Source of the DNA: a virus
Taxonomy: Duplodnaviria; Heunggongvirae; Uroviricota; Caudoviricetes
Strand: one strand, 5' to 3'
IMG/VR virus record: IMGVR_UViG_2541047928_000001
Location: 1-4,200 of that record
DNA length: 4,200 bases
Shown piece by piece: positions 1 through 4,200 of the stretch (positions are counted from its first letter, which is position 1; each line of letters opens with the position of its first letter). The notes under the pieces are model-generated. The model made no database searches and was not told the DNA's origin. It worked only from the letters and a program-made list of their open reading frames with translations. The translations under genes were made by a program, and so were the position numbers.

Positions 1-265
1 GCTTGTGAATTTGTATCGTCATGCCGCTTTGAGTGGTGACTACAACGACAGAACCAGGCTGAAGACTGTTAAGATTGAATGCTTCGTAAAACGAATCCAA
101 TGCCAGTGCTTTTTTATTCTTTCTGTTCCACCAACGCCATCCCTTGCTACAGGCTACACTGACAATCCACTGTCCACTCCTGTAAGCCATATAAAACCAG
201 ATGAGCAAAACCTGAAGGAAGGCTATCCAGTCAATAATCGTATATTTCGCGAAGGAGTCCATCAC
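1..265 (-). CDS. Partial CDS (N-terminal part only, continues past window start): small predicted membrane protein, MMDSFAKYTIIDWIAFLQVLLIWFYMAYRSGQWIVSVACSKGWRWWNRKNKKALALDSFYEAFNLNSLQPGSVVVVTTQSGMTIQIHK...
   Basis: Hand translation of the minus strand. ATG at 265-263 (second ATG at 262-260) overlaps the stop of the upstream gene at 262-264 (ATGA). A perfect SD AGGAGGT lies 4-7 nt upstream. This frame has no stop codon down to position 1. A roughly 20-residue hydrophobic stretch is followed by a W/K/R-rich segment. Absent from the ORF track, presumably because no stop lies inside the window. Confidence 0.5.
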   Translation of the reverse strand, partial: MMDSFAKYTIIDWIAFLQVLLIWFYMAYRSGQWIVSVACSKGWRWWNRKNKKALALDSFYEAFNLNSLQPGSVVVVTTQSGMTIQIHK

Positions 266-756
266 TTCACCTCCTGCGGCGGTTCCGGTAGCGGCATCCA
301 GTGGGTTACACCGCCAATTGGCTCATCGTCGTCGTACTCCAATGCTGCTATATAGAACCCGTCACGACGAGAATAAGAAATCCCTGACATTACAATGCCA
401 TCAGAAACAACAATAATGTCACCCGTTTCTTCCGGCATTCGATCACTACAGCTTATCCAACCATCCGGAGTTACCGGCACTGGCTTGGCGGTATAAAGCG
501 GTGTTATATCTGCCCGAAAATTACATGCTTTATGCAGCCGCACCCACCGTTCGACTTCTGCTTTGTCAGAATACATACCAGTGAACGTGTTATATTCACG
601 GTCAATTTGCGTGAAGGTTACCTTCCACGCCACCGGCTCTGCCTCAAGCGATGCCAGTGCAATCCGTGCCAGTTCCATTTGTTCGCCACGGGTAAGCCCG
701 TTTTCAAGCGGGTATTTAATGAACAATTCGATACGTTCTTTAGTGATAGTGCTCAT
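262..756 (-). CDS. DUF551-like phage protein (164 aa), function unknown
   Basis: Track ORF 262..798 trimmed to the internal ATG at 756-754, which has a strong SD (AAAGGAGAG, 5-nt spacer) and sits 1 nt after the stop of the upstream gene. The ATG at 798 has no SD and would overlap the upstream gene by 40 nt. The C-terminal half (GWISCSDRMPEE ... VTHWMPLPEPP) resembles the DUF551 motif as I recall it; not search-verified. Confidence 0.65.
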   Translation of the reverse strand: MSTITKERIELFIKYPLENGLTRGEQMELARIALASLEAEPVAWKVTFTQIDREYNTFTGMYSDKAEVERWVRLHKACNFRADITPLYTAKPVPVTPDGWISCSDRMPEETGDIIVVSDGIVMSGISYSRRDGFYIAALEYDDDEPIGGVTHWMPLPEPPQEVK

Positions 757-757
757 A

Positions 758-1402
758 TCACTCTCCTTTGATGCGAATGCCAGCGGCGCGGGAATCATTC
801 CATCGCTTTACTTCTTCACGAATTACGTCAATGCATTCTTTCGAATCCATTAGGTAATCTTCATCAAAAAGACGTTCCTGTTCGTTTTCTATCGCAACAA
901 TGATTGCTTCAACTAACTTTTGTGCCTGAGAACCACTTTCTAACTCTGCAATGCGCTTCTCTGCGGCCTCTGCCCTGCATTGTTCCCGTTGGAACATTTT
1001 GTGGGTGCGGTCGAGCGCCTCAAGTCTGGCTGCTGATGTTTTCTCTTCTGCTTCAAGCTCAACGCGCAGCTTCCCTACCGTTAGCGCAATATCCTCGTTC
1101 TCCTTGTCGCGGGATTTTATGTATTGCTGGTTTCTTTCCCGTTCATCCAGTAGTGCCAGCGCAACATTTGGATTAAAGGCAGCAATAAATTCAGCGTTTG
1201 CGTAAGCCTGAGCATCTGTTTCAACCAGGCAGTTAACATGACATTCTGCAATCACGCCACCGGGTTCTCCTTTCCATTTTTGACAAACAAAAACTCCTGT
1301 TAAATTGCCGTGCTGGTTAACAGATGTATGCCCTACGATGTAGCTTCCTTTAGTTGCTTTCTCTGCCTTTTCACGCAGTGCCTGATAGTTAATCTCGCTC
1401 AC
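758..1402 (-). CDS. ead/Ea22-like family protein (214 aa)
   Basis: Track ORF. GTG start at 1402-1400 overlaps the upstream stop (GTGA); SD GGAGG lies 7 nt upstream. The N-terminus ([19 protein letters not shown]...) and AAFNPNVALALLDE motif resemble ead/Ea22-like proteins of lambdoid prophages. The central region is charged and coiled-coil-like. Confidence 0.7.
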   Translation of the reverse strand: MSEINYQALREKAEKATKGSYIVGHTSVNQHGNLTGVFVCQKWKGEPGGVIAECHVNCLVETDAQAYANAEFIAAFNPNVALALLDERERNQQYIKSRDKENEDIALTVGKLRVELEAEEKTSAARLEALDRTHKMFQREQCRAEAAEKRIAELESGSQAQKLVEAIIVAIENEQERLFDEDYLMDSKECIDVIREEVKRWNDSRAAGIRIKGE

Positions 1403-1623
1403 TCTTCATCCTCCAAGTCGGCAACGGCGTCCATCACATCAGAACCGCGAATAACCTCAAAAGCACGGCAGGCCATTTGAAATACCAGTTGCTCTTGCGG
1501 GTGAGGAGACTCCCAATATTTGAAGCCTGGGCGATGCGTGTACCCCATCATTGAATAAAAATCACCAGCAAGCTTAATCGCGGCATCGACAAGCTCTCTG
1601 TTAGTCATTCTTTTTCCGCTCAC
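1399..1623 (-). CDS. Hypothetical small protein (74 aa as called), acidic C-terminus
   Basis: Track ORF 1399..1644 trimmed to an in-frame GTG at 1623-1621, preceded by SD AAGGAGG (6-nt spacer) and overlapping the upstream stop (GTGA). An alternative ATG at 1608 would give 69 aa. No recognisable family. Confidence 0.5.
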
Positions 1624-1787
1624 TGGTTGCCTCCTTTGCGCCACATCGCATTCAGATATTTGTTTTGATTCACTGACGGAAAAGAATTTCTCTTAAGCAA
1701 TTCCTCTCTCGATGGCATTGGCTTTACGCGTTGGCGAATAATCATTTCTGCCGGAAGAATGCCGGGATTGTATGCAAGTCCTCTCAT
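1620..1787 (-). CDS. Hypothetical small basic protein (55 aa)
   Basis: Track ORF 1620..1820 trimmed to the ATG at 1787-1785, which has SD GAGGA (7-nt spacer) and starts 10 nt after the upstream stop. The ATG at 1820 lacks an SD and overlaps the upstream gene. Net basic composition. Confidence 0.45.
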
Positions 1788-1797
1788 GGTAAATTCC

Positions 1798-2094
1798 TCA
1801 GTCATTACTGATAGCGCCATAGCGTGAGCGGTAATTACGCAGGCGCGGGTCGATATATTCAGGGAATTTGTCTATTGTCGCTTTTCGCAACGGTCTCATT
1901 GCTGTTTCGTTTGTTCGGTCCTTCTCCTGTTTTAGCGCGAGTTGTATATCGCGTCGGTACATCCGTTCTGCTTTTGTTTCTGGTGTCAGAGCAAGAAACG
2001 CGTCGAAATTGTTTTTGATATTCTCCAGCACCTCCGCCTTGGAGCTACCGGAGCAGTTGCGCGGGTCATCCGCACCATACAGAGGCGCTGGCAT
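1798..2094 (-). CDS. Hypothetical protein (98 aa)
   Basis: Track ORF. ATG at 2094-2092 with a weak SD (AAGG, 8-nt spacer), 23 nt downstream of the preceding stop. Same strand and tight spacing as the rest of the operon. No recognisable family. Confidence 0.55.
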
Positions 2095-2117
2095 AATGGG
2101 AGCCTTATTTTCAGTAA

Positions 2118-2705
2118 TCAGAAAGCAGGGTAATCGTTCTGGCTGTAACCATAATCATCTGCATGATTCTGGCTTACGTTTTTAGAGCGATTGTCTTTAT
2201 CTTTGAGGCTGGCAACCATGTCGGCGATAGTTTCTGGTTGCTTGCCTTCTGCCTTTTCTTTAAGGGTTTGACCTGTTTGTGCAATAAACGGGATGCGTAT
2301 TTCCATCTGGTAGCTGTCTGCGCCAGTCTTTTTGTTTGTGGTTAATACTTTCTGGAGCACTAACCCGATTTTCTTTCCATGAAATTCAGGTGCAACAAAT
2401 TTACTGGCGGAAACCATATGCTGCGTTAATTGTCCAATCCCGGCACACCCCATCATGGCGTGAACGACATTTGCGCCAAATTTGTTTTCCGTTCCGTCAT
2501 TTTTCTGAACACAAACGCTAAGATACTGGATTTTACGTCCGTCGTCGGATTCTCCAGAAAACTCAATAAATTTGGCTCCTTTTTCTGATTTCTTTAGTTC
2601 TGCTTCAGTAATGGTAATGATATGGGCGCCAGTTTCGTTAATAAAACCACCTTGCCCTGCGGTCAGTGCTGCTTCTTCGTTATAAGTAAAAATCACGTTG
2701 CTCAT
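2118..2705 (-). CDS. Putative ssDNA-binding partner of the adjacent ATPase (195 aa); possibly T7 gp2.5-like rather than a canonical SSB
   Basis: Track ORF. Its ATG overlaps the ATPase stop (ATGA), indicating translational coupling. The C-terminus ...ADDYGYSQNDYPAF is an acidic/aromatic tail ending in Phe, reminiscent of SSB and gp2.5 C-terminal tips. The N-terminus MSNVIFT loosely resembles T7 gp2.5 (MAKKIFT). There is no canonical SSB OB-fold signature. The functional call is an inference. Confidence 0.55.
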   Translation of the reverse strand: MSNVIFTYNEEAALTAGQGGFINETGAHIITITEAELKKSEKGAKFIEFSGESDDGRKIQYLSVCVQKNDGTENKFGANVVHAMMGCAGIGQLTQHMVSASKFVAPEFHGKKIGLVLQKVLTTNKKTGADSYQMEIRIPFIAQTGQTLKEKAEGKQPETIADMVASLKDKDNRSKNVSQNHADDYGYSQNDYPAF

Positions 2706-3382
2706 GCGGCGTTTTCCTTAATTTGATGAACATTATTGATGCCGTAGTAATCACAAACAGTGGCATCGACGAAAGAGAGATCGTTATCAATCTCATTGGA
2801 ATCAAACATTCCTATTGGGGATTTAACAGTGTCTGCACCGTTGTTTTTCGTGGTGAAAAAGAACTGGTCATCGCGGGTAAGGGTGCGAAGAACTATAGTA
2901 AACATGCCTTCGACAGTGATTTTCTCGTCCAGCATTTTGCCGATAGTCTTCATTTTCACACGCCCCATAGGGGTTTCTTCGGTGTGTGCGAGAAAATAGA
3001 CTCTCAGGTCATCAGGTGCATCCTGTGCAGCCTTAATCACCTCCCATGCGTGGCGGCCTATCTCAGTGAATTTATCAAACGATTTTTCTTCTGAGCGGCG
3101 CATAAACTCATTGCTCATCACATACTGGAAGTCATCAACAATAACGATTCTTTTCCCGTATTCGTGAGCACGCTTAATTACGGCAACTATTACGTCCCAT
3201 TTGTCAGTGGTAACTACGGTTCCTTTTTTTGCTCTGGCATCCCATGCCAGCCAGTCTTTTGATTTAAATGGAAGCGGCTTGCCTATTGGTTTTATAAGTA
3301 TTGCTTCCTCTGGATTGATATTTCTCATGCTGGTTGATTTTCCGGTGCCAGATTCACCGAGTATTAATGTCGCAGTTCCCAT
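2702..3382 (-). CDS. P-loop ATPase, probably Sak4-like (AAA_24 / RecA-like core) phage recombination protein (226 aa)
   Basis: Track ORF. Walker A GESGTGKST at residues 9-17 and a Walker B-like hhhhDD motif (RIVIVDD). Size and N-terminal P-loop fit the small RecA-like Sak4 family. It sits where lambdoid phages carry their recombination module, directly after kil. SD GAGG with a 6-nt spacer. Confidence 0.7.
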   Translation of the reverse strand: MGTATLILGESGTGKSTSMRNINPEEAILIKPIGKPLPFKSKDWLAWDARAKKGTVVTTDKWDVIVAVIKRAHEYGKRIVIVDDFQYVMSNEFMRRSEEKSFDKFTEIGRHAWEVIKAAQDAPDDLRVYFLAHTEETPMGRVKMKTIGKMLDEKITVEGMFTIVLRTLTRDDQFFFTTKNNGADTVKSPIGMFDSNEIDNDLSFVDATVCDYYGINNVHQIKENAA

Positions 3383-3390
3383 AATTTGCC

Positions 3391-3579
3391 TCAGAATGGT
3401 AATTCGGATGGGGAGGAAAGAAACTCACGCTCATTCATGCGCTCTCTTTGTGCCTGCCATAAGCAAAGTTGTTTCTTTGATTTATCTCCCGCTTTACGCC
3501 AGTAACGAGCCTCAGCAATGTGATATTCTCTTTTTAATCGACTTAACTCTGGAGTTTTCGCCAGTTCTACCGGAATCAT
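3391..3579 (-). CDS. Hypothetical small basic protein (62 aa)
   Basis: Track ORF 3391..3591 trimmed to the ATG at 3579-3577, which has SD GGAGGT (5-nt spacer) and overlaps the kil stop (ATGA). Lys/Arg-rich. No recognisable family. Confidence 0.5.
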   Translation of the reverse strand: MIPVELAKTPELSRLKREYHIAEARYWRKAGDKSKKQLCLWQAQRERMNEREFLSSPSELPF

Positions 3580-3689
3580 TTTGACCTCCATTTTCTGTAG
3601 GCTTCGACGGCCTCACGAAACATCTTTTCATCGCCAATAAAAGTGGCGATAGTGAATTTAGTCTGGATAGCCATAAGTGTTTGATCCAT
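3576..3689 (-). CDS. kil: Kil-like host cell-division inhibitor (37 aa as called)
   Basis: Internal ATG at 3689-3687 of track ORF 3576..3815, with SD AGGAG (8-nt spacer). The product MDQTLMAIQTKFTIATFIGDEKMFREAVEAYRKWRSK matches my recollection of the lambda Kil N-terminus. It starts 32 nt inside the cIII 3' end, the same overlap I recall for lambda. The upstream part of the track ORF is an artefact of the overlapping cIII frame. Confidence 0.7.
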   Translation of the reverse strand: MDQTLMAIQTKFTIATFIGDEKMFREAVEAYRKWRSK

Positions 3690-3822
3690 TTTTTGGGACT
3701 CCTGGCTGATTAAGTATGTCGATAAGGCGTTTCCATCCGTCACGTAATTTACGGGTGATTCGTTCAAGTAAAGATTCGGAAGGGCAGCCAGCAACAGGCC
3801 ACCCTGCAATGGCATATTGCAT
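3658..3822 (-). CDS. cIII: CIII, FtsH/HflB protease inhibitor that stabilises CII (54 aa)
   Basis: Not in the ORF track (54 aa). Hand translation from ATG 3822-3820 to TAA 3660-3658 gives MQYAIAGWPVAGCPSESLLERITRKLRDGWKRLIDILNQPGVPKNGSNTYGYPD, which matches lambda CIII as I recall it. SD AAGGAG at 3834-3829 with a 6-nt spacer. Confidence 0.85.
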   Translation of the reverse strand: MQYAIAGWPVAGCPSESLLERITRKLRDGWKRLIDILNQPGVPKNGSNTYGYPD

Positions 3823-3840
3823 GGTGTGCTCCTTATTTAT

Positions 3841-3871
3841 ACATAACGAAAAACGCCTCGAGTGAAGCGTT
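3841..3871 (-). terminator. Candidate intrinsic terminator or regulatory hairpin between the 97-aa ORF and cIII
   Basis: Minus-strand RNA: AACGCUUC, loop ACUC, GAGGCGUU (8 bp including one G-U pair), followed by UUUCGUU. It lies just upstream of the cIII SD. Likely read through under antitermination if this is a pL-type operon. Confidence 0.35.
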
Positions 3872-3894
3872 ATTGGTATGCGGTAACGCCGCGC

Positions 3895-4188
3895 TCAGGC
3901 GGCTTTGATAGTCATATCATCTGAATCAAATATTCCTGATGTATCGATATCGGTAATTCTTATTCCTTCGCTACCATCCATTGGAGGCCATCCTTCCTGA
4001 CCATTTCCATCATTCCAGTCGAACTCACACACAACACCATATGCATTTAAGTCGCTTGAAATTGCTATAAGCAGAGCATGTTGCGCCAGCATGATTAATA
4101 CAGCATTTAATACAGAGCCGTGTTTATTGAGTCGGTATTCAGAGTCTGACCAGAAATTATTAATCTGGTGAAGTTTTTCCTCTGTCAT
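3895..4188 (-). CDS. Hypothetical acidic protein (97 aa)
   Basis: Track ORF. Its ATG at 4188-4186 overlaps the TAA of an upstream gene that ends at 4188-4190 (TAATG). The composition is strongly acidic (about 16 D/E against 5 K/R), with a D-rich C-terminal region. No recognisable family. Confidence 0.6.
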   Translation of the reverse strand: MTEEKLHQINNFWSDSEYRLNKHGSVLNAVLIMLAQHALLIAISSDLNAYGVVCEFDWNDGNGQEGWPPMDGSEGIRITDIDTSGIFDSDDMTIKAA

Positions 4189-4200
4189 TACGTCATGGTC

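Follow-up and report, generated by a model that had tools for sequence, protein, structure and literature searches.

A hairpin between ea10 and cIII in a lambdoid prophage probably corresponds to the weak lambda terminator tL2b

The RNA hairpin that separates ea10 from cIII in the stretch of viral DNA analysed here (4,200 nucleotides, positions 1 to 4,200 of IMG/VR record IMGVR_UViG_2541047928_000001, hereafter the window) most probably corresponds to lambda tL2b, a weak factor-independent terminator of the pL operon located between these two genes; we put the probability of this reading, which is based on sequence comparison, at roughly 80%. The stem-loop, AACGCUUC-ACUC-GAGGCGUU, occupies positions 3852..3871 of the minus strand and consists of an 8-bp stem and a 4-nt loop, with the U-rich tail UUUCGUUAUGU (3841..3851, minus strand) directly 3′ of the stem. 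It is an ordinary, already described feature and means little as a discovery, because textbooks have included it in the lambda pL operon since the early 1980s; that the hairpin had already been named and mapped in lambda was missed by the first-pass annotation of this DNA. Its value lies in annotation: the lambda records in GenBank and RefSeq (J02459 and NC_001416) carry no terminator or other feature in the region of the hairpin.

The long reading frames of the window lie on the minus strand throughout. The 3′ part of ea10 (ssb-like; 3895..4200, minus strand) encodes 101 residues that are 100% identical to residues 22-122 of lambda Ea10. The gene is cut by the window edge, with its start lying beyond the window; the ORF list gives it 97 aa, counted from an internal ATG at 4188, but the frame continues without a stop as far as 4200 and its match to lambda Ea10 starts at residue 22. 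The first gene downstream of the hairpin, cIII (3658..3822, minus strand), encodes 54 aa that are 100% identical to lambda CIII, so that the first-pass identification of both genes proved correct. Between the ea10 stop at 3895 and the cIII AUG at 3822 lies a 72-nt gap that holds the hairpin, whereas all other neighbouring genes of the window either overlap or have fewer than 25 nt between them; for the window, then, the gap had rightly been called the only sizeable intergenic one. Downstream of cIII are kil and a recombination module of the Sf6/HK620 type (ATPase, DUF669, and Abc2 or anti-RecBCD genes). Because ea10, cIII and kil occur together with Sf6/HK620-type recombination genes, the window is recognized as part of the early leftward (pL) operon of a lambdoid, Stx-like prophage, and by its sequence the ea10-cIII segment of this prophage is essentially that of lambda. 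As one contiguous piece, the window was absent from the complete E. coli genomes and phage records searched. It ends inside ea10, and N and nutL, which are found at 35,037-35,534 in the lambda record, fall outside it. A promoter-like match, TTGATA-18-AATATT (3905-3934, plus strand), which is a consensus match only, runs antisense to the 3′ end of ea10; promoter-like matches in the window are fewer than in shuffles.

The hairpin and U-run described in the first pass at 3841-3871 are present on the minus (coding) strand, as both the fold and a consensus scan agree. In the stem, A3871-C3864 pairs with G3859-U3852 through four G-C pairs, three A-U pairs and one U·G wobble, with ACUC (3863-3860) forming the loop and an XhoI site, CTCGAG, falling inside the hairpin at 3857-3862. 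The five-U run spans 3853-3849 and thus includes U3853-U3852, two residues that the AA at the foot of the stem can pair with; it is followed by CGUUAUGU to 3841, is interrupted by CG, and brings the U content of 3853-3841 to 8 of 13 bases. The folding-energy calculation that had been proposed as a check indicates a stable fold: -9.4 kcal/mol for the stem-loop alone and -11.6 kcal/mol with its flanks (z = -3.9; none of 200 shuffles was as stable). The flanks CAUAC and GUUAUG can lengthen the hairpin into an extended helix of ~15 bp with three interruptions. In the consensus scan the hairpin was the best minus-strand terminator-like site; the window holds nine such sites versus 4.2 +/- 2.4 in shuffles, so that the terminator-like pattern alone is weak evidence. 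No other terminator-like site lies in the one true intergenic gap, and the hairpin is located on the transcribed strand, where the chance expectation of a terminator-like site in 72 nt is ~0.04 (by arithmetic from the scan). Read on the plus strand, the stem has a C·A mismatch in place of the wobble, the fold weakens to -5.5 kcal/mol and the U-run is missing; on account of the mismatch and the missing U-run, we rejected a plus-strand function. Two sequence hallmarks of intrinsic terminators are found at this site, namely, a stable GC-containing stem-loop on the transcribed strand and an immediate U-tract, although the latter is short and interrupted. With only five U, and these interrupted, the hairpin is predicted from the sequence to be a weak terminator, and a rough d'Aubenton-Carafa-type score is borderline. 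The statement that the structure abuts the Shine-Dalgarno sequence (SD) of cIII was roughly right: 17 nt separate the SD (AAGGAG, 3834-3829) from the base of the stem, and 6 nt separate it from where the U/A-rich tail ends. We also considered a cIII promoter in the TATAAAT that immediately precedes the SD and rejected it, because the scan gave no match there and a transcript starting from it would be devoid of the SD.

Alignment with lambda revealed 100% identity over 3823-3881. The hairpin, tail and SD region correspond exactly to lambda 33,488-33,512, and the start of cIII is identical as well, so that the suggested comparison with the lambda ea10-cIII intergenic sequence ended in base-for-base identity of the hairpin. 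In lambda coordinates the stem occupies 33,512..33,493 and the five-U run 33,494..33,490, and the single XhoI site of lambda in this region (33,498) falls in the hairpin loop and 3′ arm. Only 3 nt of the 72-nt gap differ from lambda, all of them in a second hairpin at the ea10 stop codon. In the HK620 record (AF335538), the homologous 22 nt are annotated as 'terminator tL2B', with tL2A placed on the hairpin just upstream of it and tL2C inside kil, and the phage L record has a predicted, that is, prediction-based, terminator feature exactly on the homologous extended hairpin. Together with the lambda identity, these annotations support the intrinsic terminator among the two functions suggested in the first pass. 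In lambda, tL2a lies between ral and ea10 and forms the 3′ end of the Hfq-bound small RNA LPR1 (bioRxiv 10.1101/2024.10.31.621285). We placed the lambda tL2a hairpin at 33,950-33,925, and the next site of the tL2 series falls where the window hairpin is, which supports the tL2b identity. Luk and Szybalski reportedly mapped tL2a-d between ral and bet in 1983. Positions 33,930 and 33,494, which we take to be the lambda coordinates of tL2a and tL2b, respectively, are the first U of the two computed U-runs. The tentative assignment of the name tL2b to this hairpin, and not to the one at the ea10 stop, rests on the HK620 GenBank annotation and on the latter coordinate.

For termination at the hairpin and read-through dependent on N, we infer the following course. 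Judging from lambda biology, unmodified RNA polymerase molecules that escape tL1 and tL2a would transcribe the hairpin; a stem of 6-8 bp would form in the exit channel while the active site holds the five-U run in a weak rU-dA hybrid, and some of the complexes would be released, probably near 3849-3845. Termination is expected to be partial because the hairpin is modest (-9.4 kcal/mol) and its U-run interrupted. The hairpin would act as one member of a tandem series of terminators, by which cIII-kil and the recombination genes would be kept low until N is made, and polymerase modified at nutL by N and Nus factors would presumably read through.

The hairpin was compared across 160 IMG/VR loci, collected through two cIII alleles, and several reference phages; CIII is too short and diverged for a locus search by protein alignment. 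Many phages match the window in BLAST over only ~40 nt around the hairpin. This conserved 40-nt block, GCAUACCAAUAACGCUUCACUCGAGGCGUUUUUCGUUAUG (3842..3881, minus strand), carries the hairpin and has mosaic junctions on both sides, with homology breaking at ~3881 and ~3842. Across the comparison set it is represented by 25 distinct versions and has 61 distinct upstream contexts; its general form is (G)CAUACCAAUAACGCUUC-NNNN-GAGGCGUUUU(U)CGUUAUG. The block stands behind at least seven different upstream modules, including ea10, the LPR1/tL2a hairpin, a P22 gp17-type gene and an epsilon34-type terminator, and ahead of at least three cIII alleles, being followed by lambda-type, HK542-type, HK022-type and phage-L-type cIII genes. 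At 3881 the best matches to the window among E. coli genomes come to an end, as do several among phages, and the cIII alleles diverge immediately 3′ of GUUAUG. In other alleles the U-run is one U shorter. The hairpin block is thus a module junction widely shared by lambdoid and Stx phages.

Within the 25 distinct versions, the stem is 97% paired and the loop is hypervariable, with three of its four positions varying freely to yield nine loop variants; when the 3′ partner is slid along the sequence, pairing falls to 27-70%. A compensatory change from C-G to U-A was found in mEpX2 and two further loci (L113 and L136), with one-sided intermediates in L156 and L161. It is the only compensatory pair, present in 2 of the 25 distinct rows (three loci), and the observed covariation score was reached by 28 of 500 shuffles, modest statistics that result from the close relatedness of the sequences. 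This pattern of conservation fits an RNA hairpin selected on the transcribed strand, at the junction of exchanged phage modules. One could argue instead that the block is a linker for the recombination of lambdoid modules, preserved by recombination history, with the hairpin being incidental. Indeed, the mosaic junctions coincide with both edges of the block (~3881 and ~3842), and upstream module, U-run length and cIII allele are found in hybrid combinations. However, the concentration of variation in the loop of a stem that stays paired, the compensatory change, and a wobble pair that works only on the transcribed strand are not what a pure DNA linker would show, making this explanation very improbable on its own, even though the linker and RNA-function ideas are not mutually exclusive.

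The surroundings of the block vary in ways that we record here as separate observations. In phages without ea10, of the HK620, HK022 and HK542 types, and in many IMG/VR loci, the LPR1 body and the tL2a hairpin lie ~10 nt upstream of the block, forming a tandem pair of terminators, and ea10 gives the impression of having been inserted between tL2a and tL2b. Phage APC_JM3.2 has a 969-nt gene for a 'TolA-like cell envelope' product (6862-7830) between its ea10 homologue and cIII; because of this insertion, the ea10-cIII gap is seen to be able to take up extra genes. Phage P22 itself is devoid of the conserved block. In P22 240-360, a hairpin consisting of GCCGCCUGAGUGCGGC and U5 is kept after gene 17, and an unrelated 9-bp hairpin precedes c3. 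Finally, IMGVR_UViG_3300001149_000060, a metagenome-derived 'viral' contig, looks like a cloning-vector construct: its hairpin breaks off at the XhoI site, where it is joined to a poly-C run and a PstI-like site.

The second function suggested in the first pass, modulation of cIII translation by mRNA structure, was not borne out. The cIII mRNA thermoswitch (Rfam RF01804, Lambda_thermo), including the SD, was identified at 3777..3835 of the minus strand with 88.5 bits (gathering score, 50; E = 3e-22), that is, approximately from -13 to +46 when counted from the AUG. The hairpin, at -30 to -49, lies outside the model, the match to which starts 16 nt downstream of it, and Rfam searches at a permissive threshold gave no match on the hairpin itself. 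The interval from -13 to +46 is the cIII element of Altuvia and colleagues, as cited in PMC4908349. In folds of the lambda context, the hairpin is an independent domain with a probability of ~0.95. Deletion work by Altuvia and Oppenheim is said to have found the short cIII region (-13 to +46) sufficient. Because the cIII switch begins downstream and excludes the hairpin, a weak intrinsic terminator is the best reading of the latter.

A broader form of the translational idea casts the hairpin as a 5′ leader of cIII that insulates the A/B switch, stabilises a processed 5′ end or provides an RNase III site that raises translation. The block accompanies cIII rather than the gene upstream of it, being found 16-30 nt before the SD of at least three cIII alleles and behind the diverse upstream modules enumerated above; its flanks are near-invariant, beyond the need of a bare terminator, and extend the helix; and cIII translation is reportedly enhanced by RNase III (Altuvia 1987, 1991, as cited in PMC9032294 and PMC5371410). 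However, in addition to the exclusion of the hairpin from the curated switch and the reported sufficiency of the short region, P22 c3 is without the block, the outer helix has no covariation, and ~15 interrupted bp are short for an RNase III substrate, for which ~20 bp or more of near-continuous double-stranded RNA would be needed. We thus consider a leader of this kind unlikely. Beyond a possible minor leader effect, a role of the hairpin in cIII translation is not supported, because it lies outside RF01804, folds independently and is extended to only ~15 interrupted base pairs.

A hairpin of sequence GCCGC-CUGAGC-GCGGC plus GUUAC (3883..3903, minus strand) spans the ea10 stop codon and is arranged in tandem with the putative terminator. 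In lambda this hairpin is followed by UUUU, whereas the window allele has lost the U4 run and has gained GGCGUUA, which is complementary to the 5′ arm of the terminator (GGCGUUA:UAACGCU). For transcript prefixes of 59 and 109 nt, the predicted probability of the terminator hairpin in the window allele is 0.19-0.26, whereas in lambda (~0.95) and all other contexts it is ~0.9, the drop being limited to the GCGUUAC allele family; in derivatives with GCGCUGC or GCGCAGC the predicted probability is ~0. These folds raise the idea that the tandem hairpins form a translation-sensitive attenuator, in which translation of ea10 would tune termination via alternative pairing. Pairing is possible between the 5′ arm of the terminator and both the 3′ arm and the tail of the ea10-end hairpin; for stretches of 59-171 nt from the window allele, the minimum-energy fold adopts this alternative; and the ea10 stop codon sits in the loop of the upstream hairpin. 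Nevertheless, the alternative pairing is confined to a single allele family, there is no leader-peptide logic, and a ribosome at the ea10 stop would mask the competitor together with the upstream hairpin, which favours termination in either case; we find the attenuator barely credible and rejected it as allele-specific. A further hairpin, AUCGCCA-CUUUUAU-UGGCGAU (3630-3650, minus strand), lies inside kil and is identical to tL2C of HK620; no U-run follows it.

The neighbourhood of LPR1 suggests one more role, compatible with the terminator reading, namely, that the hairpin is mainly a 3′-end module that protects ea10 mRNA from 3′ exonucleases or defines the 3′ terminus of a small RNA that binds Hfq and originates from the 3′ region of ea10. 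Besides the precedent of tL2a, the conserved, predicted single-stranded CAUACCAAUAA that precedes the hairpin could serve as a seed. Hfq binding at a 3′ end usually needs six or more U, and the run of five U present here falls short of this. The lambda RIL-seq study, however, reports only LPR1, LPR2 and 6S RNA and none from the ea10-cIII gap; those of its supplements that were examined contain no entries for ea10 or cIII RNA, and cIII and ea10 are not mentioned in the main text of the EHEC Hfq-CRAC paper. A predominant 3′-end function is accordingly decidedly unlikely. Combining several of these elements, we also entertain, as a highly improbable scenario, that the 40-nt block is a portable 'cIII leader cassette', in which CAUACCAAUAA and the hairpin would give rise to a small RNA (LPR1-like) or to a processed end capping the cIII mRNA, and the competitor helix of the Stx-type allele would tune the product. 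Because the neighbouring tL2a has recently been shown to make a functional small RNA, RNA ends at tL2b could be informative.

Compared with known systems, the window hairpin, as read here, belongs with the intrinsic (Rho-independent) terminators, with which it shares a GC-containing stem-loop, a directly following U-run, an intergenic location and placement on the transcribed strand; it differs from the generic ones in its short stem and interrupted five-U run, and in its position inside an operon, where it would be meant for read-through. The lambda cIII thermoregulator (RF01804), which neighbours the hairpin on a shared mRNA and is present in intact form in the window, is a separate element, and the hairpin is not part of its two alternative structures. 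Lambda tL2a is of the same operon and class, a GC stem with a U-run and a partial site upstream of cIII, but differs in sequence (GCCCUCC...GAGGGC and U6) and has a documented Hfq-bound RNA product, with none known for the window hairpin. The closest counterpart is lambda tL2b, which has the same hairpin, U-run and SD sequence, the same flanking genes (ea10 and cIII), the same strand and the same position in the operon. The two differ in the upstream ea10-end hairpin, GAGUGCGGUUUUAC in lambda and GAGCGCGGCGUUAC in the window (three substitutions), and in the downstream genes, which are gam-bet-exo in lambda and, past kil, of the Sf6/HK620 type in the window.
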